Below are positions 9,201 to 49,737 of a DNA stretch of 64,000 bases, in pieces. The stretch is from positions 28,194 to 92,193 of the IMG/VR virus record IMGVR_UViG_3300027754_004232. One strand, given 5' to 3'. The DNA is from a virus. Each line of letters opens with the position of its first letter. The first letter of the stretch is position 1. The position numbers and the translations under genes were made by a program. The notes under the pieces were generated by a model. The model ran no database searches. It saw only the letters and a program-made list of their open reading frames with translations, and was not told the DNA's origin.

Positions 9201-9474
9201 CAACTCTCTTGAAATATCTATAATAAGCAAATTAGTAGTTCAGCAAACAGCCTTGTTGGATGCTTTATCTGATTGTTCTTCTTTAAAGAAAGACCTTGTT
9301 AAACAGGCTAATAAACTATTAAAAGCGATAACAATTCAAAATGGAGGAATATTATTTATAGATAAGGATTTTTTAGATTCAGCAGAAGATGCGGAAGTTG
9401 AACTTAAAATACAGCAAAATGATGATGGATCAATAGAACTAACTATTAAAGGAGAAGAAGACGATGAAGAGTAA
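9193..9474 (+). CDS. Small acidic hypothetical protein
   Basis: 93-aa ORF overlapping both neighbours, acidic C-terminus. Confidence 0.6.
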   Translation: MNDNSLEISIISKLVVQQTALLDALSDCSSLKKDLVKQANKLLKAITIQNGGILFIDKDFLDSAEDAEVELKIQQNDDGSIELTIKGEEDDEE

Positions 9475-10102
9475 TACGATTATTGTTTTTGATTTTGAAA
9501 CAGGATCTTTAGATACAAATACTTGTGAAGTTATTCAAATTGCTGCAAAGGCAATAAATAGGAAAACTCTTCAACCAATAGAAGGTGCGGTATTTAATAG
9601 TCTTGTAAAACCTAGAGACTTTAATAACTTACAAGAAGCAGCACTAGCAGTAAACAAAAAGACAAGAGAAGAACTTCAGCTTGCACCTAATCTTGATGTT
9701 GTTTGGAGTAGATTTATTGATTTTATATCTACTTTTGCAGTTGGTAAAAGTAATATATTAGCCCCTGTTCCAGCAGGAAAAAACATTAGATTTTTTGATA
9801 TGCCGATTTTTCAAAGAGTCTGTATTGAATTAGGATATGTTCAGCCAAATGCCACACAATCTTTCTTTAATAAAAGAAGCATGTTTGATCTAGATGAAAT
9901 GATGCTGCTTTGGTTTGAAAATTCAGATGATATGCCTAATATGAAAATGGATACCATTAGAGATCATTTTGGAATGTCAAAGGCTAATGCTCATGATGCA
10001 CTAGTTGATGTTGAGCAAACAGCAGACTTAATCACATACTTCTTAAAACTACATAGATCAATATACCCAAAAGTTAAATTTAAAGACTCATTTAAGAAAT
10101 AA
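9464..10102 (+). CDS. DEDDh 3'-5' exonuclease (DnaQ/epsilon-like)
   Basis: ExoI VFDFETG, ExoII NIRFFD, ExoIII AHDALVD. Confidence 0.88.
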   Translation: MKSNTIIVFDFETGSLDTNTCEVIQIAAKAINRKTLQPIEGAVFNSLVKPRDFNNLQEAALAVNKKTREELQLAPNLDVVWSRFIDFISTFAVGKSNILAPVPAGKNIRFFDMPIFQRVCIELGYVQPNATQSFFNKRSMFDLDEMMLLWFENSDDMPNMKMDTIRDHFGMSKANAHDALVDVEQTADLITYFLKLHRSIYPKVKFKDSFKK

Positions 10103-10106
10103 TAAT

Positions 10107-34053: not shown

Positions 34054-37000
34054 TTAACCCATTTCATCTGTTATTTGCCTATCTATTTCACTAGTTATCC
34101 ATCCTTTTAGAGACTCAGTAGCATCTGTTACTGCTGCATAAACACTACTAGTATCAAAATTAACATTTAATGAAGCATTTAAAGTGCCCATTATTTCTAA
34201 ATTTAATGTTCCTGGTATTCTATTTATTGCAGCACTTAATTCATCTACATATGTTTTAAATTTTTCTAATGATGAGCTAAAACCGCTGTTAAATCCTGTT
34301 GAATTTGTACCAAATTGTGTAACTGCATTATTAAATTTATCTATTGGTCCTGATCCTATTTTTATTTCAGTTTTTAGTATTCTTGAAAGTTCTTCAAAAC
34401 TAGACTTTGCTATGTTTATTTGATTGTTATTGTTAGAACCGCCATCTGGCCTGTTCATTCTTGATATAGCAGCATCAAATCTTGATGTTCCATTATTAAA
34501 TGTTATTGCAGCTTGCAAAAGTAAGCCAGATGTTTTGCCTCCACTATTTGTTCTTCCTCCAGCATAATAACCAACAGTACCACCATTTGCAAAACCTTCA
34601 ACATCTTTTCCAGTATTTATTGCATGTAGTAAAGAAGCATTCTTAGATGATTGTCTTGCATTAACAACAAACTCACCTGGAGTTAACATGGCTGGAATAG
34701 TGTCAGAGCTAGATGATGGTATTCCACCTTTAGAAAAATATAATTCTTCATTGGCCATAGCATCTTGTTGTGCTTGTAATGCTTCCATCTTAGCTTTTAA
34801 CTGCTCTATTTCTCCTATGCTTTGTTTAGGATCTGTTTTTACTACTGCGTTTGTATTATCTGGTTTCTTATCTTTTACATCTGGTGGAGTTGTTGTTGGT
34901 TGAGTAGGTGGCAGTAAAGGCATAGTCCTTGTTTGTTTTTGTTTTTGTTGTTCTTGTTTTTGCTCTTGTTCTTTTGCTAATTGTATTGGCTTTGTTTCTA
35001 TTGCATATGAACCAAGCTCCTGTGGTCCTTCAGCATAATTCCCTGCATCTCCAATTCTGCTCACACCAGCTTTTTTATTAGCATCTGGCCCTTTGAAGAA
35101 ATTAAATCCAAGTTGTTTTTCAAAATTTTTGCTAAGAACCTCATTTCTACTATTTCTCTGTGCATCTCCTGCCTTAAGATTCATTTCATATATCTGCTGC
35201 TTATCACCAGATTGAATTGCTTCCATCATTCCTTTTTGAGTAATACCAGCATTTTTTAATCGCTTTTCAAAACTAGTTGAACTATCTCCATAAGCAAGAT
35301 ATTCTATTAAACCACCAGTTGCTGAATAACCAACATCTTGCCCACTATTTATCGCACTTAATAAATCGCCATGTTTAGCAGTAGCACCAGCATTTATTAC
35401 AAACTCACCAGGAGATAGCATAGCAGGTACTGTATCTGTACCTTTAGGCTTAAAGTAAGATGGATTAGGGTTTGGTCTATATGATGGAACATTACCGCCA
35501 GTTGCAAGGTAGTTTACTACTCCACCAACTGACATGCCTGTGGCTCTAGCATCTCGCATTCTCTGATACTTTTGCATAATTCTAATTCGGCCTTCATTAT
35601 CTCCTTGTTCAAGTGCTGCAATTTCATCAGCTTGATTTCTATCATCGATTTGATTAACCAATTGCACTCCACCTTGCTGTGGGGTTATTTCTCCCCTTCT
35701 TGTGCGATTTGCAATACTGTTTGCATCATCTGATGGTAATGGGCCGTTTGATGATTTAACAACATTTGTTTGTGATTTACTATTAGGATCTGATTCTGCT
35801 TTTTTATTTGGTTCTTGTCCATCACCCTTAATTTGTTTTGATATCTCCACTAATCTTTGATATGTATTTTTATTTTCTAATAATGCAATTGTTGCTTGTC
35901 TTTCAAATATTGTTTTTCCTTCATCATCTTGTTTTGGGAAAGAATTTACTCTAAACAAACCACCATCCATTAATCCTTGAACAACATCTTCTTTATTTGC
36001 TGGAAAATTTAAATAACCATAATTACTAATACTTGCTGTAGCATCAAGAGCCTTCAATACATTATTGTCTAATCCACTTTTATATGGATATAAACCTTTT
36101 GCCATTAATACTTCTATTATTTGCTCATTATCCATTTGTGGAACAGCAGTTCTAAAATCAGTCGCACTAAAGTCTATTTCTGTATCTACCTTCTTGCCAA
36201 AATTTACATTTCCTATTCCATTTTCACCTATACCATTACCTGTTAATTTTCCAAATCTTGTAAACGATTGAATATTTTTATCAGACTTTTCTTCTAAAAC
36301 TTCAAGAAAACCTCTTCCTTTTTTTATTTGATTTGTGCTTGCAAATAATTTATTAGCTTTTCCTTCTCTATCTAAAAACATTAATGCTTCAAATATACCT
36401 TGTGCTTGTGCAGTTATAAATTCTGGATCACCACTAATATCAGATCTTTTTGCTTTTTCTTTTATTAATTTTTCAACTAAAACTTGTGGGTCTTTAGTTA
36501 TAGCTTTTCCATATGTTTCTATATATGAAGCCATCTCTGGACCTTTTGAAGTTGCTGCCTTTTCAAAAGAGTTCATGGTTATAAATGAATCAACTATTTT
36601 CTTTTGTCCTGCTGATATATTTGATAACGACTTTTTATCTATAGTTGTTTCCTCTCCTTTTATTAATTTTTGAAGTTCTTGTTGCCCAACTTCAAAAGCA
36701 AACTTTGGCGTTATTCCTGTTGGATCTTCTTCTGGATTATCTTGTATTAATTTCATTTTTCCAATAATTGCCTGTGCCTGTGCCTCTCTTTGCAAATATA
36801 TTTTTGCTATTGCTTCTGGACTTCCTTTTCTTCTAAAGAAATAATTGTCTTCTTTTGCACCCTTTTCTTTAATGAATTTATCTACATTTTGTGATCCTAC
36901 TTCATTAATTAAACCGCTATTTACATAGTCACCTTGAATGCCTGACTCTTTAAGTTTTGCTTTTTGTTTTTCTATATCTTTTGTTTTAGCAATAGCACCT

Positions 37001-40000
37001 TGTTTATCTAAAACATTTGAAGTGTCTAATTTTGCTGCTGTATCTTTTTTAAATTTAGCTTCTTTTTCATTTTTTAATCTTTGCTGTTCATCTGCTATTT
37101 TTTGTTTTTCTTCTGCTATTCTTTTATCAAATTGTTTTTTTGCATCATTAATTTCTTGTGTATAATTCATCTGTCCTTTTTGTTTTATTCCTAATGCAAA
37201 ATCAACATAACCTTTAGATGATTCATTTACTTTTATTTGTTTTTTACCAAGGTTAGTTTCTGGAAAGTATTTATCAAATTCTGCTTTAGAAGGTATTAAA
37301 TTCGACACACCTAAACTTAAAGTTGAAAGAAGACTATTTTGAACAACTGCTGCTCCTTGACCGCTAGATATCTCATCTTTAATCGTTCTATATTCACTTG
37401 AAAAATAATCTATCCCTCTATCTCTTGATTTTTTATCAATTTCTGCTTGTGAATTAAAAAGATTTAACTTAGATTCTTTAGAAAGTCCAACATCATAATT
37501 ATCTAATTCTTTACCAAGTTTTCCTGATTCAACAGTTTTATTTGCTAGTGTAGTGAAATTTTCATTATATAACTTTATTATATTTTGTTTTTCATCGCTT
37601 TTTGTAATAGCTTTATTTATAGTTGAAGGCCAATTTCTAGAAGAACCGAATACTACATTTGATTCCTTTAAATAATCATCATTTCTTTTTTCTTCATTTA
37701 GTTTGTCCGCTTTAGTTTTTAATTCTCCAGAAAAACTAGCTACTTGCAAATATTTTTGTTTAATAGCATTTTTATATTCATCGCTATTCATAAATTCTAA
37801 ATTGGAAGATGCATTATTAATTGTATTATTGATATAACCAGCAATACCACCTCCAGCTAAATAAGATGTTTTTCCACTATTTATAGATTGTAATAATGGT
37901 AGATTTTGTTGTGTCGCACTTCTATTTACTACAAATTCTCCTGGTGTCAACATTGCAGGAACTGTATCTGTACCCCTTGGTTTAAATACTGAACCACCAA
38001 CAGCAAAAGCTGAAACTTGAGGTTTGGCTTCTGCACTTGGCAATTGTTGAATTCCACCAAGTCCATTTATAGCTTCATTTAAAGCTTTTATTCTTGCTTC
38101 AGCATTTGTTGCAGCAGTGGATAATCCTTCACCAACTCCAAGTTGAAGTTCTTTTATACTGGCCAAAGCTCTATCAAATTGATCAAATGATATTTCATTT
38201 CCAGCTAATTTTTGTGCTAAACTATTTAATTTTTCTTCAATTCCAGAACCTTTAAAATCACCTTGTATTTTTGTTTGTTCTGTATTAAGTTCCTTGCCTT
38301 TTTGTTCATGAAATTGATTTCTTGCTAAACGCAATGAATCTTTTCCTTTTCCTTCACTTATCTTTTCTTGAGTAATCTCTCTTATTTTTTGAGCTTCACT
38401 TGCCTTATACCCCCCTTCATTTACTAATGTGTTTTCAATTTCACTAGTATTAGTAATAACACCACCAACTGTTTTTATGTTGGTAGGAACTTTTCGTTCA
38501 CCTTTTTCAGCTAAACTTGTTTGTTCTTGTTTGTTTTTTGCTAAAGCTGTAACTTGTCCTTTATATGTATTCAATTTTTGAAAATCTTCTTTAGTATTAA
38601 ATCCAGATTCACCTAAAAATTTACCTTCTTTTTGAACATCTTTAATCTGTGCTACTTTTTGTTGTTCTTTTCCTTTTTCTGCACTTAAACTATTCTTTTG
38701 CATCTCCTGAGTAAACTTTTGTAGCTCAGAATAAAACTTTTCATTTCTTGAATCTAAATTACTAAAATAATCTTGTTGCAATGATTGCTGATTAGCTATT
38801 ATCTGTCTTTGTGCTTCTTCTTGTTGAGCAAAAATTCTAGCTTGTTCTGCAATAAGAGCCTTCTCTTCTGCTTTATCATCCTTACCAGCACCATATCCAT
38901 TAGCATCAAGTATTTGATCTTGTATTTTCTTTCCCGCAGCACCAAAATTATCTAAAAAATCAAATAAAATAGCATTTTGCTCCGTACTCATCCCTTGAAG
39001 GCTACCGCCACTAGCTTGTACTTGATTAAAAATTGCCTGTCCTTGCAACATTTTTTGCTGTTCTTCTGGACCTTGTGTCAATAGCTTTCTTCCTAAAGAT
39101 CTTTTCTCATCTATGTTTTGTCTAACTTGTGAAAGTTTAGCTTGTGCTGCTTCTAATTTCTTTGATTGATCAGTAAGGCTTTTTAATGCATCATTTAAAT
39201 TAGATGATTGAGATTTTAATTTTGTTAATTCTAATGCTGCACTTCTAAAGTCTGCACCACCATTTGTAGACTTATTTGTATTTAATACTTTCTCTTCTTG
39301 AACTCTTATTTGTTGTTGTGTGCTTTTTAATCTAGAAGCTATGGCAGCAGGGTTTTCTGCTGCACCAGCACCAAAACCAGTTAATCTTTGTTGTTGTTCA
39401 GAAAAGTCATTTCTTGCACCTTGTAAGTTTATACTTTCTGCTGCCCCTTGTTGTACTCCAGGAAGTCTCTGTATTTCATTAGCTGCAAAAGATCTAGATT
39501 TACTTCTTAGTTCAGAAAGTTTACCTATTTGATCCCCAATAGCTTTCTGTCTTTTTGCTAAATCTTCAAGTCCACTTATGTATTTATTTCCAGCATCAGT
39601 TAATTTGCTATCTATTTCATTAAATGCACTTATGAGTGGATCACTAATGTCAGACATTAATTTTTGAGTTGCTTTAGAAACATCTCCACCAGCTTCAGCC
39701 AACAATTTAGTAAAGTCTTCTGACGATACTTTTCCACCAACAGAACTTACTACTTGATCAGCAGCAGCACCTGTTATTCCTCTTGCTTTTAATCCTTCTT
39801 TCAATGCATCAGTTATTTGTGTTGATGTGTCCTTTCCAGATATTGGATTAGCTACAGATTGTGCAAGAATGTCTGGTAAAATTTGACTTGCTGCATTTAC
39901 TGCATTGCCTTGACTCTTAAATTGTTCTCCATAAACACCTAATGCACCAGAAGATTCAGTTATTGCTGCATTAAATTTTGCAAAATCAGGAGTTGAACCA

Positions 40001-43000
40001 CCGCTTTTTTCTGCAAAAGAAGTTAACTTTGTTGATCCAATTGAACCTTCAAATAATGATGAATTTGTATCTAACTTTGATGAGAATGAATCAGCAGATG
40101 CAGCAGCAGCATTAACCGCATTACTAAGTGACTGCATTGAATTTATAGCTCTTGCATTTTCTTGTACTGCTTTAGTAGTTACAGACTTTATTTTTTCTGC
40201 TTGGAAAGACTCTTGTAGTGTTTTTATAAATTGTTTTTCTGCATCTGCAATACTAATATCTTGAGCAGAAGCAATCTTAGCAATTTGTTCTTTTCCAGAC
40301 CCACCACCAGCGGACCTTAAATCTTTAAGTAATCCACCCTTAAGATCTTCAAAATTTGTTGTGGCTATATCTCCACCACCAGATTTTATTTTTAATGCTG
40401 CATCTTTACCTATTTGTTCACTGTATTTATTTAAAACATTAGTCAATGGTCCTATTTGTGCAGCGTTAGTTTCTTTTGAAGATTTAGACAATGTTTCATT
40501 ATACTTTTTTTGATTTACATCAGTTCCAGTAAGCCCAAAACTAATAGTGTTTAAGCCTTTCATAAAACTACTATTGTTGCCACCAGATTCTTCATATGCT
40601 TTTGTGGCGTTTTCTTCAGTCACAACTTTTTGATTTTCGGATATTTTTCGTAATGTGGAATCATTTACTTCAAGTAAACCACTTGAAACTCTTTCAAATA
40701 TATTTTGCAAATTATTTAATGCTTGAGCAATTTTTGCTTCTCTTATTTCAGCTTCTGCTTGTTTTATTCCATTGTGGTATCCTTCTATTGCACCAACTAT
40801 TCCAGCTATTCCAGCACCCACACCAGCAACAACTGGGCCAAATTTAGCTAATGATTGACCAGCAACAGCAGCGTATGTGCTTGCTGAACTTAGTGCTGCA
40901 CCAAAAGCTTGTGCTGATTTAAAACTAGATGCTGCACCTTCATCTACCTTTACAGTATCTCCTTCGCCCTTAGAAACTATTCCCGCTGCTGTTCCACCCG
41001 AAGACTTAATTCTTTCACTTAAAAAACTAGCACCCACAGCAGCAGTAGTTAGTCTGTTAGCTACAGTACTTCCTCTTGATTGTTTAAACTGTTGATCTCC
41101 TTCTGAACCAGTTTCAAAGTCAGTTCTTTTTGCACCAAAAAGTGCCCTTTCTCCAAAATCTTTTAATGCTCCACCTTTTGTTAGTTCTCCAGTTTCCTTA
41201 TATCCACCACCAACAAGTTTTTTACCTAAACCAGTATCTCCAGTTATTTCTCCTTGAGCATTAGTCTGTAGTTTTCTTTGCCCTTTACTGGCCTGATTAA
41301 CATAATTATCTACAACTGATTGTACTTGTATATCATTTACTGGCTTTCCTCTTTTTACTGCATCTGCTCTGACTTGTTTTTCTACTCCAGTTCTATATTC
41401 GCCCAAAGCTTCTTGCTTTAAATTTTTCTTGTCTTCCTTAGTAGCCTTTCGGTTAAATGTTGCCTCAAAATTTGCGGTTTTTTGTTTAACAATATCACTT
41501 ATTGATCCTGGACCCCTAGATGATTGTTCACCAACAACTTTATTGTTTTTTGTTACTTCTCCAGATTTATTTACTTTGTATTGGTCTAAATCTACTTTTG
41601 CTTTTGATTGTTCGTCTTCTGCTGTTTTATATTTTGCTTGATCAGCAGCAACAGTTTTCTGAAGTGGTACAAGCCTAGATTTTTCAGATACAAGTTCCCT
41701 TCTTTTATCTGCCAATTGATTGTTTACGCTGTCTAATTTTTTTTGTGCTCTAGCATCACCTGGGTTTGCTCTAAGAAAAGCTTCTTGTTTTTTTTGTGCT
41801 GCTTCAAGACCCTTAATTCCTTTGGATAAATTTTCAGTTACTGTTTGTTGATCTTCTAATGTTTTTGTTGATCTTTCAAGCTGTTGCTTAAGTCTATTCG
41901 CTTCTGCTGATGTATCTACTAATTTTTGCCCTTTTGTTTTAATATCGTTATAGCTAGTTGCTGCTTTAGTTCTTGCCTGACTTCGAGTTAAATCTGGATT
42001 ATTTTGCATCTGCTGATCAACTAGTTGCTTTGCTAATCTAGCCATTTTTCTAGGGTCTGCTGGATCAAAAGTATTGTCCTCACTTAATGGTGTGCCACCC
42101 TTGCCTAATTTTACTGAGCCACCTCTAGCAAATTTAGCAAACTGATTCATAGCATGTAATTTTGAAGAACCAATCTTGTTTGCTTCTTGTGGACTATATA
42201 TGTATTCACCTGGCATTACTAATGCAGGAACAGTACCACCACTAGCAAATCTTGAGGCTTTTGCTAAATTATCTGCACCTATCTTATTAACTGAAGACTT
42301 TCTAATTACAAAAGAGCCTTCGGGCAAATCCATAGGAACAGTGTCGGAGTTTCCAGTTCCTGGTACTAATCCACCAGTTGCAAACCTACCTTTTTTGGTT
42401 CTAGATGTAGCAGCAATACCAGCTAATAATCTTTGGTATTCAGCTTCTTGTGCATCATAGGAAGCTGTATTGCTTGTATTTTTTGTAGCTCTAGGTTTTC
42501 TTGGCTTTCTTGGTTTTTTTACTTTAGCATAAGGATCATAATTATCTTCTGGAATCTGTGTGTTTGGTAAACTTACAATTGGCTTTGCTGCTTGTGCCTG
42601 TGGTTTTAATTCCGATACGACTGGCTTTGCAATCGCTATTGGTATTGTTGCTTGTGCCTGTGGTTTTGTTTCTGAAACGACTGGCTTTGCAGTCGCTGTA
42701 GATCTCAAGCTCCTTAAGTTTTCTGCCAAATTTTCATTCGCTATTCCTCTTTCTCTTACTCTATTTGATTGTCTTTCATTTAATCTAAGATTTCCTTTAA
42801 TGCGATTTTCTGCTGATGTATCTCTAAGTCGTTTTAAGGCATCAGCATTATCTTTAATCTTCTGTTCTTGTGTTCCATATGAGCCTATTTTGGCAAGTTC
42901 CATTTCATCAAATAAAGTTTTTTCTTGTGCAGGAGCAGACTGCTTTCTTGATATGTTATATCTTTCGGACTCTGTTTTCGGAGTTCTTGGTTCTTTTTTA

Positions 43001-46000
43001 GTTTTCTGACTTCTTGCTATTTTAATATTTAAATTTTCGTTGAAATCCCTTTCTTCTCTTTGCATTCTTAGTCTTTGTGCTTGTGGCGATGTGCCTGGAA
43101 TATCAGAAAAGAATTTAAATCTTTTTGGGTCTACTTGTTGTTGTTCTTGAGGTGCTTTATAATTTTCATTTATACCGATTAAATTTTTTGGTTCTAAACT
43201 TTCTTTTGGATTAGGCAACCCTCTTCCTTCTCTTCGTTGTCTATCTAAAGCCAACTTTTTCTGTAGTTCTTTATATTGATCTGAACCTTCAAATACTTTT
43301 GTGTCTCTAGCTATACCAAATGTTTTATTTTGTTGGTTTTCTTCATCTATTCCAGAAATAATGCTGCTTAAACTTGAAGCATTATCAGTTTTTGCTTTTG
43401 TTGCATCTGCTGTACTTGCTGAAGCAAGATTTCTATTTTTTTCTGCTTTAGCAGTTCTAGCAATATTTTCAGCTTTTTTTCTAGCATTTCTTTCTGTAGC
43501 TACTCTTAATTCTTCAGTGCGTTTTTCTTTTGGCGTTTTTGGTTTCCAAGGGAATGTTCCAATGGTTCCAAATTTTATTACATCTTTATCTAGCTGTATA
43601 TTTAATGGGCCACGCTTATCGCCAAAATCATAATCAAACTTAAGATCTTTGATGTTTTTTGTTTGTGAAAACTTATCTTGTGCTCTATTAAGTTTTGCTC
43701 TTAGTTCTTCTGAATGTTTTGGTGGTAGTTTAGAAAGAAGCTCATCTAAAGATTTAACGCCTTTTAAATCGTATGTTGGTTTTACTTCTGTTGGTTTTGT
43801 AGTGCCCTTGTCTGCAAGATCTTTATTTGCTGTAACATTAAATTTTGTACCAAGAAAATTAAATCCAACAGACTTTAATTTCATTGATCCAGATGTTCTT
43901 GCATTTACTATTATTTCCTTAGCAGTTTTTATTTTTTCTTTAAAATCAGCTAATTGTTTTGGGCTTAACGCATTGGTAAATTCTTCTAAGTTTTTTGGTT
44001 TTACAACTGGCTTTGCAGTTGGTTTTGGCTTAGTCGGGATAGGTGCGGTAGCGGTAGCTGTGGCGGTAGGTTTTGGTACTGGTGCTGAAACGACTGGCTT
44101 TGCAGTCGGGATAGGTGCGGTGGCGGTGGCGGTAGGTTTTGGTACTGGTGCTGAAACGACTGGCTTTGCAGTCGGTGCTGAAACGACTGGCTTTGCAGTC
44201 GGGATAGGTGCGGTGGCGGTGGCGGTAGGTTTTGGTACTGGTGCTGAAACGACTGGCTTTGCAGTCGGTGTTGAAACGACTGGCTTTGCAGTCGGTGCTG
44301 GAACATATGGCTTTCCAGTCTTTCTTATTTCATCTAAAATTCTCCTTGCTTCATTTTTTCTTTCTTCCCAGTTTGGTCCTCTAGCCTTAGCTTTTTCTTC
44401 CTGCAAAATTCTCGATGCCTCATTCTTTCTTTCCAACCAATTTGGTCCTTGAGATTCACTTTTTGCTTTATTTAAATCTGCTCTTGCTTTATTTAATCTT
44501 TCATTAAATTTCGGTCCTTGAGGTTTCTCATCATATATTTTTGTCCAAGCAGCAAGTGCAGACTTTGCTTCTGGACTTGCAATGTCTTCGTTATATATTT
44601 TATCCCAAGCAGCAAGTGCAGACTTTACTTTTGGGTTTTCCATTCCTTCATCATCTATTTTTAACCAAGCAGCAAGTGCTTCTTTTTCTGAAATTCCTGG
44701 CTTTGCAGTCGGTGCGGTAGCTATAGGTTTTGATACTGGTTCTGAAACGACTGGTTTTACAGTCGCCTCATCTTCATCTGGCCTTCTACCCGCTTGATTT
44801 ACATATTCTCTATGCCCTCTTTTTACTTGTCTTTCATACTGAAATTTTTTAAATTCTTTAGTGTCACTAATAAGCTTTCCTGTTTTTGGATCTTTTTTAA
44901 GATTGGGTTTTAATAAGTTAAGGGGGTTTAATTTTGACAATGTGTCTCGCACACCACCAAAAATGCCTTTTGCTTTTTTTATTCCTAAATATTTTTCTGC
45001 AAATTTCTGTTTTCTTCTTTCTCCTTTAAATTCAATGTTTTTTCTAGCATCATATGTGTCACTTTGATTAAAATCTGTTAATAGTCTTCCGCTATCTCCA
45101 CCTCTTGATCCTACCAGTTCTCCTGGATAAACAAAACTTTTTAGTATATTGCTTTCTCCCATATCTCCACCACTAGGAAGAAGAATTGATCTTCTGTCAG
45201 CAATATTTCTTTTTTCGTATTGCTTCCTTATTTTACTTTCTGCTTCAAGTTTTTTTGCTTGTTTTTTTTCTTCTATTTGTTTAGGAGAAGAGAATATTTT
45301 TTTGCCAGCTTTATTTCCAAGTGCCCCAAGTCCAAATCCAGAAGCCATAGATCCAACAACTAAACCAGAAAAATATCCCATAAAAGGACCAATACTTGGA
45401 TCATCACCAAGAATAGAATCACCACCAAGTATTCCAGCAGCAAATGGAACCATCCCACCAACAACACCAAGCGAAACACCAAGCAACATTGACTTATCAC
45501 CAACAGTTAATCTTTCGGGTCCACCCCCCTTGCCAAACTTTTGTCTAGCCACTTGATTTTTTGGAACAACTAGTTCGCCTGGCTCAAGTAATGCACGAAC
45601 CTTATCTCCAGAGCCACTTCCCGGTACTATCCCGCCCTTTTTCATCCTTACAATAGGACCACCTTCAAAGTATCCACCTCTTTTTGCTTTAGCAGCTTTC
45701 TGTCTTTGGCTATATGCAGTAGAAGCATTATCTGTTTTAGCTCTCTCTTTTGCTTCTTCATTTGGGCGAATGCCCCTAGCTGCTTCAAAACTATCAAATC
45801 TATTTGGTTTGGTGAATGTTTCTGGATTTGTACCTTGCCATTGACTTCTTGCTTGAGCTTTAGTTGGAGGATCTTTAAAAATAGATCTAAACATTTCATC
45901 TTCTGATTGAGCATTACTTTTTGGGGGTGGTGTCGTAGTCTTTGGACCAGCTTCAGCCCTTGCTTTTCTAAGACTGTTTCTATCTAATAAAGTCTTAAGA

Positions 46001-48780
46001 GCAGCATTTATTCTTTCCATGTTGCCATTAGGTTTAGCAGTAGGATTCTTGTCTGGATGATTTATTTTTGCAGCAACTCTAAATGCACCCTTTATCACTT
46101 CATCTGTATGAATAACGCCCTTGACCAAATTTAAAATTTCTTCGGGGGAAAAATTTGGTGGAAATGGTTTTGGTCCTACATTATTGCCCTCCATGAATCT
46201 TTGGCGAGAGATTGGTCCACCTAGAGCAGCTTTTCTAAATTTAAATTTGCGAATTTTTTCAAGTTCTTTATTATTGTATGTTGTTTTTATTGAACTTAAT
46301 TCATCAAGAATTCTAGTATCGTAGCTTGTATCTGATTCAGTAGCCGATTGAATATTTTCTTTTCTGTAAGATTTTTTTTCTTTTTTTAAATCATTTATTT
46401 GATTTTGTACATCTGCTTTTTTTAAACTAGAATCTTCTATCCAATCTTTTTGTTTTAATTTTTTAATTATTTCTAATTGAAAAACTTTAGTGCCAACTTC
46501 TTTTCTAAGAATCGAACTAATTGCATCATCACTACCTTTATTTTTTGAATCTATAAATTTATCTTTTGAATCAAAATCAGAACCTTTAATTCCTATCATT
46601 GTTGCTTGTGTTTTATTGAATTTTGGAAAATCAAATCTAGCACCAGAAACTTGAGGTTTTAATCCTGTTTTTTTTGAAATATAAGACTCTAAAAAATACC
46701 CCCTTTTAGAGCCTACTTGTGATGCTAAATATTTTGGATCAACACTAGAATCATTTTTAAATATGCCAGAAACTAATGGTATATTGTTTTTACTTTTTAA
46801 ATTAATGCCCAATTTTTTTTTCTTATTTAAGAATGAATTTAATGTTTTTTGATTGCTTACGAGATTTTTATCTTTTGATATATAATCATCTGGTCCAAAA
46901 TAATAATTTCTAGCACCTTTTGCTCTAAGTATTTCGTTTTGAATTACTTGATATTCTTGAGAAAGCACAGTGTTTTCTATTTTTTTATCTAATGAATTTA
47001 TGTCTTTTTTACCAATAGTATATATATTTATTGATGAATCTTTTATGCTTATTTTTTGTTTTGCTTTTTGTGGTTTATTCCGATATGTAAAAACATCATC
47101 ACCATAAATAAGTGGCGTTCCTTTAGGAAAAGATATTTGATTATTATTTGATTTGGATTGTTTCTTGCTTGGTTCACTTGAAGCTTCTATTATTGCTCCT
47201 TGACCAGGAGTTGCTTGAAAATTATTTATATCTATAGTACCGCCACCAGCATATTTATTTCTTCTTACTTGATTCCTTGGCACAACCATCTCACCTGGCT
47301 CAAGCAAAGCTGGCACTTTATCCCCAGTTCCACTTCCTGGGACTATACCCCCTGTTCTCATCCTAAGAAAACCGCCATATGCCTTTTTATTTGTCCTTGC
47401 AGAAGAATTGTCTGCACCAGCACCTTTTACAAAACCTGTGGCAAAAGAGCCAATTCCTTGACCAATTTTTACAGCAGCAAGGGCAGTAAATAATGGGAGT
47501 AAACCTTTAAGTGAATTAATTAATGACAAAACAGAAGTGGCAGCACCAATGAATGTATCAGCCAAACTTCTAAAGCCAGGGCTATTAACAATACTTCTAC
47601 CAACCTCAAAAAAGCTTTCCTTCAACTTCTGTAGTTTTACAGCAAGAGCATCCTGTGCTTGGCCAGCATTAACGGCTAAAGACACACTACCAGCTTGAGC
47701 TATACCCAATGCCTTCTGTGCAGTAGCAAATTCTTGAATAAGTGGGATAACCTTACTGATCTGCCTATAACCACCTAATTGCTCAACAATGGCACTAAAT
47801 CGGGGGTCTGTTGACCTTAATTCAGAAAGTCCAGCAGATAATCTTTTGACTGCTTCATACGGACCAACAAACTGCTGTTCTAGGCCAGCATCGCCTAAAG
47901 CCCTAGCTTCTTCTGCTGTATACCTAAGATTTATACCAACTTCTTTTAGAGCGTTAGCCGTATCATTTCTTTGTATTCGTGTAAATATAGTTCGCAAACC
48001 AGTACCAATACTTTCGGCACTTTCTCTTGTCGTTTGTCGTACTGATGTAAATAAAGCTATAAGTTCATTTAGTTGACCACCAGCAGCTTTAAATGCACCC
48101 CCTGTCTTTCTAATCGCCTCAATAATGTCTGATGCTTCAACAGCAAACTCACCAGCTACGGCATTAACAGAACCTAAAGCTGCACCAAGATCTTTTGCTT
48201 CGATCTTAAACTGCTTCATAATAGCAATAGCACCTTCAGTCGTATCTTTGAGGTTATCAAAGTTTGGTGCTAAAGCAGCTTGTGCCATTGCTTCTAATGC
48301 ATCTTTAGTTTCAGAAAGAGTTAAGTTAGCTTGTTTTAAAACTACCGCTACGCCAATCAAGTCCTTGCTAGAAACACCTAAATTTTTAGACAAATTTGTT
48401 ACTTGTTGACCTACAGCACCAACATCTTGTACTGTGTCTGAAGAAACTTGTCTCAGCCTAATCATCTCTCTATCAAAATCTACCGCAGCAGAAACAGCTT
48501 CTTTCATTGTGTTGGTAAAAGCAATGATTGATCCAGCAGTAACGGCAAATGCAGCAAACCTTTTGGCAGCAAAGCCAGCTTGTCTACCAAAATTTTCCAT
48601 AGAGTCAGTAGCTTCAGAAATTTGAGACTTTATTTGCCCCAATCCAGAAGCACTACCTCTATCAATACCAAGCTTTACTTGAGTATTAGAATTTAGTGCT
48701 GCATTTAATTGGCTTGAAGCATTCCTCAGAGAAGCACTATTGAGAGCAATATTCAATTGAGCAGTTAAATTAAAAGCCAT
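34054..48780 (-). CDS. Giant tape measure protein (4908 aa) with inserted cargo-like domains
   Basis: N-terminal phage TMP-type region (AVDFDREM, GESIGTGLRTIFTRI-like segment), long Ala/Gln/Lys helical tracts, repeated DTVPAMLTPGEFV modules, and a position after tail-tube and chaperone genes. Confidence 0.9.
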   Translation of the reverse strand: MAFNLTAQLNIALNSASLRNASSQLNAALNSNTQVKLGIDRGSASGLGQIKSQISEATDSMENFGRQAGFAAKRFAAFAVTAGSIIAFTNTMKEAVSAAVDFDREMIRLRQVSSDTVQDVGAVGQQVTNLSKNLGVSSKDLIGVAVVLKQANLTLSETKDALEAMAQAALAPNFDNLKDTTEGAIAIMKQFKIEAKDLGAALGSVNAVAGEFAVEASDIIEAIRKTGGAFKAAGGQLNELIALFTSVRQTTRESAESIGTGLRTIFTRIQRNDTANALKEVGINLRYTAEEARALGDAGLEQQFVGPYEAVKRLSAGLSELRSTDPRFSAIVEQLGGYRQISKVIPLIQEFATAQKALGIAQAGSVSLAVNAGQAQDALAVKLQKLKESFFEVGRSIVNSPGFRSLADTFIGAATSVLSLINSLKGLLPLFTALAAVKIGQGIGSFATGFVKGAGADNSSARTNKKAYGGFLRMRTGGIVPGSGTGDKVPALLEPGEMVVPRNQVRRNKYAGGGTIDINNFQATPGQGAIIEASSEPSKKQSKSNNNQISFPKGTPLIYGDDVFTYRNKPQKAKQKISIKDSSINIYTIGKKDINSLDKKIENTVLSQEYQVIQNEILRAKGARNYYFGPDDYISKDKNLVSNQKTLNSFLNKKKKLGINLKSKNNIPLVSGIFKNDSSVDPKYLASQVGSKRGYFLESYISKKTGLKPQVSGARFDFPKFNKTQATMIGIKGSDFDSKDKFIDSKNKGSDDAISSILRKEVGTKVFQLEIIKKLKQKDWIEDSSLKKADVQNQINDLKKEKKSYRKENIQSATESDTSYDTRILDELSSIKTTYNNKELEKIRKFKFRKAALGGPISRQRFMEGNNVGPKPFPPNFSPEEILNLVKGVIHTDEVIKGAFRVAAKINHPDKNPTAKPNGNMERINAALKTLLDRNSLRKARAEAGPKTTTPPPKSNAQSEDEMFRSIFKDPPTKAQARSQWQGTNPETFTKPNRFDSFEAARGIRPNEEAKERAKTDNASTAYSQRQKAAKAKRGGYFEGGPIVRMKKGGIVPGSGSGDKVRALLEPGELVVPKNQVARQKFGKGGGPERLTVGDKSMLLGVSLGVVGGMVPFAAGILGGDSILGDDPSIGPFMGYFSGLVVGSMASGFGLGALGNKAGKKIFSSPKQIEEKKQAKKLEAESKIRKQYEKRNIADRRSILLPSGGDMGESNILKSFVYPGELVGSRGGDSGRLLTDFNQSDTYDARKNIEFKGERRKQKFAEKYLGIKKAKGIFGGVRDTLSKLNPLNLLKPNLKKDPKTGKLISDTKEFKKFQYERQVKRGHREYVNQAGRRPDEDEATVKPVVSEPVSKPIATAPTAKPGISEKEALAAWLKIDDEGMENPKVKSALAAWDKIYNEDIASPEAKSALAAWTKIYDEKPQGPKFNERLNKARADLNKAKSESQGPNWLERKNEASRILQEEKAKARGPNWEERKNEARRILDEIRKTGKPYVPAPTAKPVVSTPTAKPVVSAPVPKPTATATAPIPTAKPVVSAPTAKPVVSAPVPKPTATATAPIPTAKPVVSAPVPKPTATATATAPIPTKPKPTAKPVVKPKNLEEFTNALSPKQLADFKEKIKTAKEIIVNARTSGSMKLKSVGFNFLGTKFNVTANKDLADKGTTKPTEVKPTYDLKGVKSLDELLSKLPPKHSEELRAKLNRAQDKFSQTKNIKDLKFDYDFGDKRGPLNIQLDKDVIKFGTIGTFPWKPKTPKEKRTEELRVATERNARKKAENIARTAKAEKNRNLASASTADATKAKTDNASSLSSIISGIDEENQQNKTFGIARDTKVFEGSDQYKELQKKLALDRQRREGRGLPNPKESLEPKNLIGINENYKAPQEQQQVDPKRFKFFSDIPGTSPQAQRLRMQREERDFNENLNIKIARSQKTKKEPRTPKTESERYNISRKQSAPAQEKTLFDEMELAKIGSYGTQEQKIKDNADALKRLRDTSAENRIKGNLRLNERQSNRVRERGIANENLAENLRSLRSTATAKPVVSETKPQAQATIPIAIAKPVVSELKPQAQAAKPIVSLPNTQIPEDNYDPYAKVKKPRKPRKPRATKNTSNTASYDAQEAEYQRLLAGIAATSRTKKGRFATGGLVPGTGNSDTVPMDLPEGSFVIRKSSVNKIGADNLAKASRFASGGTVPALVMPGEYIYSPQEANKIGSSKLHAMNQFAKFARGGSVKLGKGGTPLSEDNTFDPADPRKMARLAKQLVDQQMQNNPDLTRSQARTKAATSYNDIKTKGQKLVDTSAEANRLKQQLERSTKTLEDQQTVTENLSKGIKGLEAAQKKQEAFLRANPGDARAQKKLDSVNNQLADKRRELVSEKSRLVPLQKTVAADQAKYKTAEDEQSKAKVDLDQYKVNKSGEVTKNNKVVGEQSSRGPGSISDIVKQKTANFEATFNRKATKEDKKNLKQEALGEYRTGVEKQVRADAVKRGKPVNDIQVQSVVDNYVNQASKGQRKLQTNAQGEITGDTGLGKKLVGGGYKETGELTKGGALKDFGERALFGAKRTDFETGSEGDQQFKQSRGSTVANRLTTAAVGASFLSERIKSSGGTAAGIVSKGEGDTVKVDEGAASSFKSAQAFGAALSSASTYAAVAGQSLAKFGPVVAGVGAGIAGIVGAIEGYHNGIKQAEAEIREAKIAQALNNLQNIFERVSSGLLEVNDSTLRKISENQKVVTEENATKAYEESGGNNSSFMKGLNTISFGLTGTDVNQKKYNETLSKSSKETNAAQIGPLTNVLNKYSEQIGKDAALKIKSGGGDIATTNFEDLKGGLLKDLRSAGGGSGKEQIAKIASAQDISIADAEKQFIKTLQESFQAEKIKSVTTKAVQENARAINSMQSLSNAVNAAAASADSFSSKLDTNSSLFEGSIGSTKLTSFAEKSGGSTPDFAKFNAAITESSGALGVYGEQFKSQGNAVNAASQILPDILAQSVANPISGKDTSTQITDALKEGLKARGITGAAADQVVSSVGGKVSSEDFTKLLAEAGGDVSKATQKLMSDISDPLISAFNEIDSKLTDAGNKYISGLEDLAKRQKAIGDQIGKLSELRSKSRSFAANEIQRLPGVQQGAAESINLQGARNDFSEQQQRLTGFGAGAAENPAAIASRLKSTQQQIRVQEEKVLNTNKSTNGGADFRSAALELTKLKSQSSNLNDALKSLTDQSKKLEAAQAKLSQVRQNIDEKRSLGRKLLTQGPEEQQKMLQGQAIFNQVQASGGSLQGMSTEQNAILFDFLDNFGAAGKKIQDQILDANGYGAGKDDKAEEKALIAEQARIFAQQEEAQRQIIANQQSLQQDYFSNLDSRNEKFYSELQKFTQEMQKNSLSAEKGKEQQKVAQIKDVQKEGKFLGESGFNTKEDFQKLNTYKGQVTALAKNKQEQTSLAEKGERKVPTNIKTVGGVITNTSEIENTLVNEGGYKASEAQKIREITQEKISEGKGKDSLRLARNQFHEQKGKELNTEQTKIQGDFKGSGIEEKLNSLAQKLAGNEISFDQFDRALASIKELQLGVGEGLSTAATNAEARIKALNEAINGLGGIQQLPSAEAKPQVSAFAVGGSVFKPRGTDTVPAMLTPGEFVVNRSATQQNLPLLQSINSGKTSYLAGGGIAGYINNTINNASSNLEFMNSDEYKNAIKQKYLQVASFSGELKTKADKLNEEKRNDDYLKESNVVFGSSRNWPSTINKAITKSDEKQNIIKLYNENFTTLANKTVESGKLGKELDNYDVGLSKESKLNLFNSQAEIDKKSRDRGIDYFSSEYRTIKDEISSGQGAAVVQNSLLSTLSLGVSNLIPSKAEFDKYFPETNLGKKQIKVNESSKGYVDFALGIKQKGQMNYTQEINDAKKQFDKRIAEEKQKIADEQQRLKNEKEAKFKKDTAAKLDTSNVLDKQGAIAKTKDIEKQKAKLKESGIQGDYVNSGLINEVGSQNVDKFIKEKGAKEDNYFFRRKGSPEAIAKIYLQREAQAQAIIGKMKLIQDNPEEDPTGITPKFAFEVGQQELQKLIKGEETTIDKKSLSNISAGQKKIVDSFITMNSFEKAATSKGPEMASYIETYGKAITKDPQVLVEKLIKEKAKRSDISGDPEFITAQAQGIFEALMFLDREGKANKLFASTNQIKKGRGFLEVLEEKSDKNIQSFTRFGKLTGNGIGENGIGNVNFGKKVDTEIDFSATDFRTAVPQMDNEQIIEVLMAKGLYPYKSGLDNNVLKALDATASISNYGYLNFPANKEDVVQGLMDGGLFRVNSFPKQDDEGKTIFERQATIALLENKNTYQRLVEISKQIKGDGQEPNKKAESDPNSKSQTNVVKSSNGPLPSDDANSIANRTRRGEITPQQGGVQLVNQIDDRNQADEIAALEQGDNEGRIRIMQKYQRMRDARATGMSVGGVVNYLATGGNVPSYRPNPNPSYFKPKGTDTVPAMLSPGEFVINAGATAKHGDLLSAINSGQDVGYSATGGLIEYLAYGDSSTSFEKRLKNAGITQKGMMEAIQSGDKQQIYEMNLKAGDAQRNSRNEVLSKNFEKQLGFNFFKGPDANKKAGVSRIGDAGNYAEGPQELGSYAIETKPIQLAKEQEQKQEQQKQKQTRTMPLLPPTQPTTTPPDVKDKKPDNTNAVVKTDPKQSIGEIEQLKAKMEALQAQQDAMANEELYFSKGGIPSSSSDTIPAMLTPGEFVVNARQSSKNASLLHAINTGKDVEGFANGGTVGYYAGGRTNSGGKTSGLLLQAAITFNNGTSRFDAAISRMNRPDGGSNNNNQINIAKSSFEELSRILKTEIKIGSGPIDKFNNAVTQFGTNSTGFNSGFSSSLEKFKTYVDELSAAINRIPGTLNLEIMGTLNASLNVNFDTSSVYAAVTDATESLKGWITSEIDRQITDEMG
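44005..44300 (-). repeat. Intragenic tandem repeats in the TMP encoding PTAKPVVSAP / PVPKPTATATAPI
   Basis: Near-identical DNA units (gaaacgactggctttgcagtcgg) repeated five times, plus more diverged copies near 42600-42700 and 44700-44760. Confidence 0.9.
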
Positions 48781-48794
48781 TTTTATACCTCAAT

Positions 48795-48844
48795 AAAAAA
48801 GGGCAGAGCATAAGCGTAGTTACTTCTACGATTAAACCCTGCCC
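48795..48844 (-). terminator. Intrinsic terminator-like hairpin directly upstream of the TMP gene
   Basis: Minus strand reads GGGCAGGGTTTAATCGTAG-AAGTAA-CTACGCTTATGCTCTGCCC then TTTTTT (19-bp imperfect stem). Confidence 0.75.
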
Positions 48845-48864
48845 ATCTATGCGATACTGTCCGT

Positions 48865-49737
48865 TTAGTTCTCAACGACCTTTGCTGGTTCAACAACAAC
48901 TGCTGGTGCTTCTGTTGTTTTAACAGCTTCAACCTTTTCTTCAATCGGCTTACCTTCGTCATCAAGGAATGGAGAGAAGTCAACAACATAATCTCCTTCC
49001 TCGTTAACTCGATTGCCATTAATATCAATGAGTTCACCAGCCTCACTAATATACCTACCATCCTTATTGACTAGCCTACCCTCAGAATCAACCCTTCGCC
49101 CTGTCTTATCAACTAAATGCAACTCTTCATCCACAAAGTTATATTTAGCTAAAAACTGGTTCTCAGGGAGCTTCTTTTCATAATCTGGATCAAGATTATA
49201 AAGCAACATAGCGAGGCTTCCTGCTGCCTGTCCAGTTGCTGGATCGTCATCTCTATTCAAGTAATCTTCATAATTACCAAAATATGTTTTCCCTGTCTCT
49301 GAATACACCGTACACGAACTAACCCAGTAATTGAATTGGGCATTATCTGCTTGACCTTCAGCAGTATTATTATCTAGAGATGATCGCTCAGAGGTTAAAG
49401 ACCTGAGTTCTGCACGATCTTTCCTCATTTCAAGAGCTAAGTCCTTAGCCTGATTGAGTTTAATACCGCCAGACTTAATCTTTCTTTCTGCCCCATTAAT
49501 TTTTTCCAACAATTTGCGATATTCAGCTTCTTTGTTATCATCCCAAAGATTCTGCTCTCGCATAACATTATTAACTTTACCACGAAGAATTGCACCAGAT
49601 TCAACGGCATCTCGAAATGCCTTATTATAAATCTTTTGCCCTTCCTGCCTTTGTTTAACATTAGGTCGAACAACACAAAGTTCGATTTCTTTGCTATCCA
49701 AAGTCACCTTAAACTGCTTCTTATTTGTGACACTCAT
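48865..49737 (-). CDS. Putative tail assembly chaperone
   Basis: Between the tail tube and TMP genes, helical, with C-terminal 7-aa G(R/N)xV(D/N)xx repeats. GGAGG Shine-Dalgarno. Confidence 0.55.
   Translation of the reverse strand: MSVTNKKQFKVTLDSKEIELCVVRPNVKQRQEGQKIYNKAFRDAVESGAILRGKVNNVMREQNLWDDNKEAEYRKLLEKINGAERKIKSGGIKLNQAKDLALEMRKDRAELRSLTSERSSLDNNTAEGQADNAQFNYWVSSCTVYSETGKTYFGNYEDYLNRDDDPATGQAAGSLAMLLYNLDPDYEKKLPENQFLAKYNFVDEELHLVDKTGRRVDSEGRLVNKDGRYISEAGELIDINGNRVNEEGDYVVDFSPFLDDEGKPIEEKVEAVKTTEAPAVVVEPAKVVEN

Follow-up and report, generated by a model that had tools for sequence, protein, structure and literature searches.

A J-domain in a recombining cassette of a giant phage tape-measure protein suggests borrowing of host DnaK

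Among the closest described systems are tape-measure proteins in which an additional functional domain is carried. SPbeta YomI has transglycosylase/peptidase domains, T5 pb2 is a tape measure with an embedded functional domain, and the tape measure of mycobacteriophage TM4 reportedly contains an Rpf-like motif, a finding credited to Piuri and Hatfull in 2006. The principle shared by these proteins is that domains of the tape measure reach the infected cell ahead of the DNA. To our knowledge, the functional domains found so far inside tape measures are all cell-wall-acting, and those of YomI, TM4 and pb2 attack the envelope peptidoglycan. A J-domain is a different case, as it has one known kind of partner, the cytoplasmic Hsp70. 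J-domains with the HPD motif stimulate the ATPase of DnaK/Hsp70.

We analysed a stretch of 64,000 nucleotides (the window), corresponding to positions 28,194 to 92,193 of the virus record IMGVR_UViG_3300027754_004232. A single ORF on the minus strand (34054..48780) encodes a giant protein of 4,908 aa (P0001), which the sequence-only reading had taken for a tape measure. Our searches lead to the same annotation: this protein is, by its sequence matches, a tail tape-measure protein. PF10145 (PhageMin_Tail) is found at residues 125-335 (47776-48408, minus strand) with 84.3 bits against a Pfam cut-off of 33.2, and two PHROGs annotated as tail length tape measure protein were matched, phrog_4211 (E 7.5e-26) and phrog_28 (E 1.3e-22). 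Residues 92-456 have 27% identity over 365 aa to the SPbeta-family YomI tape measure, so that the cores are related, and in both proteins extra domains ride in the tape measure. The N-terminal core, residues 1-518 (47227..48780, minus strand), is conserved in all relatives at 87-95% identity. At E <= 1, the only Pfam families found in the whole protein are PF10145 and the J-domain family PF00226.

The protein has seven Gly-rich modules of the lambda gpH type, according to a motif scan for the Gly-flanked pattern GGxVPGxGxGDxVPAxLxPGExVV. Copy 1 (residues 474-507; 47260..47361, minus strand) is similar to gpH 725-782, while copy 3 reaches 42% identity with gpH 754-784 in a pairwise search (E 3.6e-4). 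Copy 2 is located at residues 1046-1079 (45544..45645, minus strand). With its seven modules and 4,908 aa, the protein is far larger than the YomI, TM4 and pb2 tape measures. Its mass is about 540 kDa and it is largely disordered.

The gene is part of a co-oriented late block, and its neighbours correspond only to unnamed viral clusters in the ESM Atlas, with no PHROG or Pfam family matched. The source is a low-GC uncultured lake phage, probably a siphovirus with a genome of about 140-160 kb. Neither the phage record nor the complete relative gave a match to a sheath family, which lends weak support to a non-contractile tail. A search for tRNA genes, which might have pointed to the host, was negative, and blastn of the region against GenBank phages returned no match.

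The core of the J-domain spans residues 877-940 (45961..46152, minus strand) and comprises a short helix I, helix II, the HPD loop and helix III/IV, as delimited with Pfam, AF2, Foldseek, VIA-align and an alignment with DnaJ. The sequence-only reading had described a DnaJ-type J-domain with an intact HPD at 45980-46152, bracketed by GG motifs. The peptide that it quoted is present in the 4,908-aa ORF as residues 877-933 (nt 46152-45982, minus strand), and its coordinates were correct to within a codon. The HPD tripeptide is indeed intact, as read directly from the codons CAT CCA GAT (46051..46059, minus strand), with H908, P909 and D910 falling in the helix II-III loop of the predicted fold. 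The bracketing also holds, with an invariant GG at 854-855 and GG runs at 1040-1050 bounding the module. The identity of the domain, in turn, is backed by the Pfam profile, the predicted fold and the signature residues.

The Pfam check that the earlier reading had proposed gave a marginal result. The match to DnaJ (PF00226) covers residues 882-935 and profile positions 4/5-57 of 63. It is above the curated cut-off of 27.8 bits for a 111-aa fragment (28.9 bits, E 1.2e-6) and in a six-frame genome search (29.5 bits), and below it for the whole 4,908-aa protein (23.9 bits, E 4.6e-5). Histidine is rare in this protein, with 9 of 4,908 residues, and only 0.018 HPD tripeptides are expected from composition. 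A profile search of the PDB reached Thermus DnaJ at E 5.9e-5, and the natural sequences matched were J-domains in every case. The best PDB matches were the designed toroid repeat proteins 5byo and 4yxz, which we discarded as an artefact that sums twelve sub-threshold repeats.

When aligned with E. coli DnaJ, the core keeps L10, R22 (as K), Y25 (as F), K26 (as R), A29, H33, P34, D35, F47 (as M), I50 and L57, and has V at the position of R27. Its pI is 9.9. There is no G/F region, no CXXCXGXG zinc finger and no DnaJ C-terminal domain, as in class C (type III) J-proteins. Residues 877-940 thus look like a genuine, diverged J-domain of the class C type.

The AF2 model of the fragment has a core pLDDT of 86-92 and predicts helices at fragment residues 30-33, 44-58 and 71-94. 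The HPD, at fragment residues 59-61, comes directly after the second of these, in the loop that joins the two long helices. The model shows helices III and IV as one continuous helix, and the N-terminal end of helix III is shortened by a Pro-rich loop, as seen in the model and in the DnaJ alignment. In a Foldseek search of the PDB, the top ~45 among the matches listed were J-domains (probability 0.35-1.0, mostly >=0.85; E 0.018-0.9), including the J-domain of E. coli DnaJ in its complex with DnaK (5nro_B; TM 0.72, rmsd 1.8 A over 56 columns). An exhaustive structural search with VIA-align gave J-domain proteins as 22 of the 23 best matches, with Z up to 9.3. We also considered whether the module contains another folded domain or an autoinhibitory helix; this was rejected, as the AF2 model of residues 840-1075 is confident for the J-domain only.

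J-domains of this sequence subfamily are limited to about seven giant proteins, of 3,857-5,620 aa. Among the sequence types, H and D of the motif are invariant (7/7) and P is retained in 5/7. The two others, P0003 and P0004, have HSD in place of HPD, and neither was detected with Pfam DnaJ in the genome search. Carriers with 35-60% identity still share the signature positions. A very distant carrier (P0005) has only the J-domain and a PGEFV motif in common with our protein. It contains two J copies, both with HPD, and scores 39.3 bits with Pfam DnaJ. Retention of the domain and of both HPD motifs in P0005 points to constraint across divergent carriers, and we counted it in favour of the explanation preferred below.

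This type of J-domain is rare. An exhaustive phmmer search of 1.84 billion representatives recovered four giant proteins, one multi-J protein and one spurious match. Scans of metagenome, viral and GTDB genomes with the J alignment found the same four contigs and L012 only, the latter being a short-motif match that has no J-domain. No match was found in the bacterial (GTDB) genomes, and P0005 was not found in the viral contigs. Two word-based searches, which are weak evidence, were also negative: residues 840-970 had no match at E <= 0.001 among proteins of 2,699-8,589 aa, and the J alignment had none among proteins of 211-2,000 aa. With tblastn, the J fragment did not match any of 50,697 GenBank phage records at E <= 0.05, with RB43 Rki included, and a fusion of a J-domain with a tape measure was described in none of the papers searched. 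The nearest complete relative (L009, 141.8 kb) has a J-domain nowhere in its genome, which indicates that the domain is dispensable in this lineage. The same absence is seen in relatives with 4,697-aa tape measures, one of them a complete genome.

The domain heads a conserved J-module of ~210 aa (residues 850-1062; 45595..46233, minus strand), composed of xAxGG, an RQRFMEG motif, the J-domain, a PPPK linker and an F/W-rich tail. The module is set between Gly-flanked modules resembling one in lambda gpH, and copy 2 of these closes it. The block can be aligned in five relatives (L005, L006, L004, P0002 and P0004), and the flanks cannot. It lies in a hypervariable cassette region, residues 511-1589 (44014..47250, minus strand), without counterpart in L009: in BLASTP, identity is 95% over residues 1-510, and the alignment resumes only at residue 1590, with no match between.

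The dS of the J-core DNA is 0 against L005 and 0.075 against L006. Synonymous identity with a phage whose flank has a dS of 0.37 implies that the cassette moves by recombination. The dN/dS of the J-core is uninformative on constraint, as the near-identity to L005 and L006 reflects recent recombination and L004 is near saturation; between HPD-type and HSD-type domains it is 0.41, only moderate. On this comparative evidence, the J-domain is an accessory, recombining cassette and not a core part of this tape measure.

Downstream of the module there is a putative glycine-zipper hydrophobic hairpin at residues 1094-1152 (45325..45501, minus strand), with a Kyte-Doolittle maximum of 1.93 in a 19-residue window. 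Such a segment is found 190-670 aa downstream in 6 of the 7 J-bearing proteins, P0004 being the one without it, an association that rests on seven related sequences. None was found in the J-less cassette of L009.

This arrangement suggests that the presumably injected tape measure borrows host DnaK, and we likewise infer the stage, entry or assembly, at which it would do so. Our best explanation, offered tentatively, is that an active J-domain recruits DnaK in cis at entry, a stage that is favoured by a small margin. The J-domain, with its HPD and the basic/aromatic signature of helix II intact, would dock host DnaK-ATP and trigger ATP hydrolysis. DnaK would then clamp the adjoining disordered, Lys-rich and glycine-zipper segments of the same chain. 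The tape measure would exit the tail before the DNA, the glycine-zipper hairpin, 150 residues downstream of the J-domain, would insert into the cytoplasmic membrane, and a fast-folding J-domain would become exposed on the cytoplasmic face. There, DnaK could pull, hold or remodel the tape measure in the manner of a ratchet or unfoldase, and so help to clear a path for the DNA. Such a use of Hsp70 may be likened to that of Pam18/Tim14 or Sec63 at the translocon.

Several observations favour recruitment of DnaK in cis and at entry. The tape-measure identity of the carrier is one, and the glycine-zipper segment downstream of the domain in most J-bearing proteins is another. Membrane translocation has been associated with the glycine zippers of tape measures (PMC10240207), lambda gpH* is the first protein out at ejection and makes a trans-envelope channel (PMC12617516), and the HK97 tape measure needs a host chaperone at injection, going by the citing account (Cumby 2015, as cited in PMC10240207). 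High turnover and recombination of the cassette are typical of entry or host-interaction determinants. With only about 3-6 copies of a tape measure in each virion, titration of DnaK is far less plausible than a local role. The phage record was searched for an Hsp70 gene and has none that was found, and we counted this for the use of host DnaK.

Other observations count against it. Changes of the HPD proline in DnaJ-type proteins usually abolish Hsp70 stimulation, so the HSD of P0003 and P0004 argues against an active domain. The marginal Pfam score, the shortened helix III and the J-less complete relative were weighed in the same direction. Entry itself is disfavoured by the N-proximal position of the domain, which implies late exit from the tail, and by the cytoplasmic location of DnaK. 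An extended form of the proposal, in which the J-domain beside the glycine-zipper hairpin makes a DnaK import motor for the tape measure and the leading DNA end and has been acquired repeatedly by giant tape measures, we consider speculative and rather improbable. Such a motor would be the bacterial-virus counterpart of the mitochondrial TIM23-PAM and ER Sec63-BiP translocation motors.

A functional J-domain could instead work in the producer cell, which we rate as possible and somewhat less probable than recruitment at entry. DnaK would be loaded in cis onto the nascent tape measure and keep it soluble and off the membrane until the tube subunits enclose it, supplementing the tail assembly chaperones. 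The surroundings of the domain, low-complexity sequence modelled with low confidence and a membrane-active-looking hairpin, would suit this role, as would the restriction of this J-domain type to proteins of 3,857-5,620 aa and the existence of cis-acting viral J-domains such as that of polyomavirus T antigen (fold match 1faf, Z 5.8). However, size alone is no requirement, given the J-less tape measures of 4,697 aa, and a stand-alone J-protein gene would be equally suitable. The other known tape-measure domains (Rpf, lysozyme, SLT, M23) are all entry-acting, as is well established (see PMC12617516, PMC6116005).

It is unlikely that the J fold has no Hsp70 function, either decaying or repurposed like Pam16/Tim16 or HPD-less J-like domains, and is present as a small folded spacer or to bind another partner in a cassette-shuffled tape measure. 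The HSD relatives missed by Pfam, the marginal score, the shortened helix III, the dispensability of the domain in the lineage and the only moderate dN/dS between HPD and HSD types would fit such a role. Against this, H and D are kept in all seven types and P in five, including both P0005 copies, and the Hsp70-contacting K/R-x-x-F/Y-K/R of helix II, pointless in a mere spacer, is kept as well.

Action in trans on the physiology or the defences of the host, following delivery or late expression, appears quite improbable. The domain would perturb DnaK/DnaJ/sigma-32 in the manner of RB43 Rki, or interfere with DnaJ-monitoring immune sensors. The citing text describes Rki as a J-protein of phage origin with the ability to bind DnaK and stabilise sigma-32 (Perrody 2012, cited in PMC12619734), and phage sensing by bNACHT25 is described there as mediated by DnaJ (Conte 2025, cited in PMC12619734, PMC13581612). 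In its accessory and rapidly changing distribution, the domain also resembles counter-defence genes. Nevertheless, few virion copies, tethered in a 540-kDa structural protein, are ill suited to titrate an abundant chaperone, the J fragment has no tblastn similarity to Rki or any GenBank phage protein, and a free gene would be the simpler solution.

A chance likeness between the J-domain profile and a helical stretch of low complexity, in line with the sub-threshold whole-protein score, Foldseek E values of only 0.02-0.9 and the ease with which small helical bundles reach middling Z, is hardly credible when independent lines concur, the fragment exceeds the cut-off, P0005 scores well above it, the structural match lists are almost purely J-domains, an HPD with so low an expected count sits exactly in the loop, and the signature positions are conserved across divergent carriers.

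Recruitment of DnaK by the tape measure bears on how this protein and the first DNA cross the cytoplasmic membrane in very-long-tailed phages, and on what powers the crossing. An active domain would make this the first virion structural protein with an Hsp70 recruiter of its own. Either part of the tape measure would then work in the recipient cytoplasm, or giant tape measures would need a built-in chaperone recruiter for their production.

Among phages, RB43 Rki (Perrody et al. 2012, PMC3486835, cited in PMC12619734) is likewise a phage-encoded J-domain protein, and together with the DnaJ/DnaK genes of "moraphages" (PMC12619734) it is, in the citing account, thought or shown to use host DnaK. 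Rki and the moraphage proteins are free-standing and non-structural, while our J-domain is part of a tape measure. The HK97 tape measure, with host PtsG and periplasmic FkpA, offers a precedent for chaperone-dependent injection (Cumby et al. 2015, as cited in PMC10240207, PMC12619734). FkpA is a periplasmic prolyl isomerase for which no dedicated recruiting domain is known, and Hsp70 is not known to take part, unlike in the system proposed here. In polyomaviruses, the large and small T antigens similarly contain a viral J-domain in cis in a multifunctional protein, which thereby exploits host Hsp70. That J-domain belongs to a eukaryotic virus and is N-terminal in a non-structural protein, with Rb-family complexes and replication as its targets.

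Finally, the class C J-proteins E. coli DjlA, mitochondrial Pam18/Tim14 and ER Sec63, which are tethered at membranes or translocons, have, like our protein, a lone J-domain beside hydrophobic membrane-type segments. By analogy, they would share with it a presumed local activation of Hsp70 on a polypeptide at a membrane. One of the best fold matches in VIA-align is the Tim14-Tim16 complex (2guz, Z 7.9, rmsd 2.1 over 60 residues), and the sequence relationship with this class is limited to the J-domain. Unlike the J-domains of these proteins, the one described here forms an internal cassette, and its carrier is a structural protein of the virion, presumably injected into another cell.

The candidate J-domain lies in a single ORF of 4,908 codons (34054-48780, minus strand), and the short plus-strand ORFs overlapping this interval are shadows of its frame. 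The sequence-only reading had called the carrier a tape measure, and profile matches point firmly the same way: PF10145 scored 84.3 bits at residues 125-335, tape-measure PHROGs 4211 (E 7.5e-26) and 28 (E 1.3e-22) matched as well, and over residues 92-456 the identity to YomI, a tape measure of the SPbeta family, is 27%. The IMG/VR virus record, of which the window covers positions 28194-92193, is 92 kb long (completeness 57% by CheckV), with a GC content of 30-37%. Its plus-strand half has replication genes (DnaB-type helicase, primase, split DnaE-type polymerase) and glycosyltransferases, and its minus-strand half is a late block with almost no matches for its proteins. The DNA polymerase (phrog_405) consists of two separate genes with other ORFs between them (window 7278-11732). 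A 92-aa ORF (48783-49061, minus strand) stops 3 nt ahead of the tape-measure start codon and overlaps, in a different frame, the 3' end of a 290-aa ORF (48865-49737, minus strand), an arrangement that recalls the frameshifted G/GT pair of tail assembly chaperones. A sheath family was found neither in this record nor in one complete relative, which weakly suggests a siphovirus.

The J-type peptide first noticed, with its HPD intact, was located at residues 877-933, with HPD at residues 908-910 (nt 46051-46059). Histidine occurs only 9 times in the protein, whose composition predicts 0.018 HPD tripeptides. The proposed match to Pfam DnaJ (cut-off 27.8 bits) held for the fragment (28.9 bits, E 1.2e-6) and in a six-frame search (29.5 bits), but not with the whole protein as context, where the score was only 23.9 bits. 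Among solved structures, the natural matches of the single sequence were all J-domains (E 0.008-0.9), and a four-sequence profile had Thermus DnaJ as its best match (E 5.9e-5). Some designed toroids scored better in this search and were rejected as repeat-summing artefacts. In alignment with the E. coli DnaJ J-domain, the kept positions are L10, R22 (K), Y25 (F), K26 (R), A29, H33, P34, D35, F47 (M), I50 and L57. The core is basic (pI 9.9).

The structural models are all predicted, from shallow alignments (6-7 rows). In the AF2 model, whose core has pLDDT 86-92, helices span fragment residues 30-33, 44-58 and 71-94, and HPD lies in the loop immediately following the second helix. About the top 45 matches listed by Foldseek were J-domains, among them that of DnaK-bound DnaJ (5nro_B; rmsd 1.8 A over 56 columns, TM 0.72). 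In an independent structure search, J-domain proteins took 22 of the first 23 ranks (xRbj, Z 9.3; Rap1 DnaJ-like, Z 8.8; Tim14-Tim16, Z 7.9), with unrelated helical bundles from Z 5.9 downward. The search tool warns that Z below 8-13 is common for helical bundles, so we give weight to the purity of the hit lists rather than to the scores. The model departs from a canonical J-domain in two respects: a Pro-rich loop after HPD shortens the N-terminal end of helix III, and helices III and IV form one helix. Profile, solved-structure matches, predicted fold and signature residues agree on a J-domain, and every J-domain trait testable by computation here was found in the segment. The architecture is that of a class C J-domain protein. 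Since AF2 of residues 840-1075 gave no other confident fold, the J-domain is modelled as a small folded bead amid a flexible, low-complexity string.

Comparison of the relatives reveals a mosaic tape measure. Residues 1-518 are 87-95% identical across all of them, residues 519-849 (K/S/I/N-rich) have no counterpart in any, and residues 850-1062 form a conserved block, the J-module, common to contigs L005, L006 and L004 (its giant protein is P0003) and to giant proteins P0002 and P0004. The module consists of an invariant lead-in (RQRFMxG...KPFP), the J-domain with a GPKTT-PPPK linker, and a conserved F/W-rich tail (QSEDxxFRxxFxDxP[T/S]K...WxG..PExFT.PN.FDS[F/W]EA). The lead-in motif (LRQRFMEGNNLGP) also occurs in an unrelated Pro/Thr-rich protein without a J-domain (L012:6001-6063, Ga0315906_10004347). 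As the first reading had noted, GG motifs bracket the J-domain: the module starts directly after an xAxGG motif and ends at the next Gly-flanked module.

A motif scan found seven copies of this Gly-flanked module (core GGxVPGxGxxDxVPAxLxPGEFVV...; in full, (F/Y)AxGG..VPGxGxxDxVPAxLxPGEFVV...IN.G..(F/Y)AxGG), all on the minus strand, at 47260-47361, 45544-45645, 42283-42384, 42175-42276, 37906-38007, 35374-35475 and 34642-34743. In lambda gpH one comparable module is present, at approximately residues 725-782 (42% identical over 31 aa, E 3.6e-4 in a pairwise search); it belongs to the Gly-rich C-terminal part, which is cleaved off as gpHC (PMC12617516). The giant protein resembles a series of tape-measure-end units separated by cassettes. 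Because the J-module of P0004 sits directly between two Gly modules, these look like cassette joints; they may mark sites of recombination, of processing, or of both. Just after the J-module lies a glycine-zipper hydrophobic hairpin of two segments (residues 1094-1152, window 45325-45501), and such segments also follow the J-domain in L005, L006, P0002, P0003 and P0005. Tandem Pro/Thr/Ala-rich repeats (TAKPVVSAPVPKPTATATAPIP units) occupy window ~44000-44330 and ~42560-42700 (residues ~1485-1590 and ~2030-2075).

When 1.84 billion representative proteins were searched exhaustively with phmmer, this J type turned up in only four others, all giant: P0002 (4,913 aa), P0003 (4,941 aa), P0004 (4,503 aa) and the metagenomic P0005 (3,857 aa). 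Scans of sequence collections brought in a further two IMG/VR contigs, whose copies are 82-83% identical; none were found in GTDB genomes, GenBank phages or proteins of 211-2,000 aa. The window type, P0002 and both J copies in P0005 retain HPD; in P0003 and P0004 the tripeptide is HSD and the loop is shortened by three to four residues. Between the window type and the HSD type, dS of the core is 1.16 and dN/dS 0.41. P0005 shares only the J-domain and the PGEFV motif with our protein, in a different domain order. Its two HPD copies (1223-1274 and 1690-1740, ~470 aa apart; 39.3 bits) are followed downstream by a region of strong hydrophobicity (2237-2417), which matches a tape-measure PHROG only weakly.

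The J-domain is absent from the 4,697-aa tape measures of L007 and L009, from the truncated one of L008, and from the whole of the complete L009 genome (141.8 kb, terminal repeats). Window 44014-47250 (residues 511-1589) is replaced as a whole cassette by an unrelated segment of ~580 aa in L009. The flanking blocks are 95%, 70%, 78% and 87% identical to L009, and outside this cassette the J-less relatives are nearer to our protein than J-bearing L004 and L005 are. These comparisons argue that the J-module is an accessory cassette moving between tape measures by recombination, with at least two old alleles.

The only established J-domain activity that we know of is docking of helix II and HPD on ATP-bound Hsp70, which triggers hydrolysis. 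Hydrolysis locks Hsp70 onto a nearby polypeptide. No Hsp70 gene was found in the phage record, so the putative partner would be host DnaK. A local role in cis is far more plausible than DnaK titration, as a lambda virion holds three to six tape-measure copies (PMC12617516).

Our tentative preference is for entry, where the J-domain would act with DnaK on the tape measure during infection. To our knowledge, all other tape-measure-embedded domains act at this stage, and entry determinants typically show fast cassette turnover. Six of the seven J-bearing proteins have a glycine-zipper segment 190-670 aa downstream of the J-domain; the J-less cassette has none. Tape measures exit first and build a trans-envelope channel (PMC12617516), their glycine zippers are linked to membrane translocation (PMC10240207), and during injection the HK97 tape measure depends for its function on a chaperone of the host (Cumby 2015, as cited in PMC10240207). 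Action with DnaK at assembly ranks only slightly lower: a chain of 540 kDa that is disordered and partly hydrophobic makes an obvious client for DnaK and this J type occurs only in giant proteins, but J-less relatives of equal length exist. The HSD alleles, the marginal profile score and the dispensability of the domain would fit a J fold devoid of Hsp70 activity, which we consider unlikely. A role in trans, in host manipulation or counter-defence, is improbable, and a chance resemblance to a J-domain very improbable indeed.

Full-text literature searches returned no tape measure with a J-domain, and the phage J-proteins described there are free-standing genes only. One of these, Rki of RB43, is unrelated to the present domain. 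The nearest functional analogues of our J-domain are the membrane- or translocon-tethered J-proteins DjlA, Pam18/Tim14 and Sec63, together with the cis-acting viral J-domain of polyomavirus T antigen.
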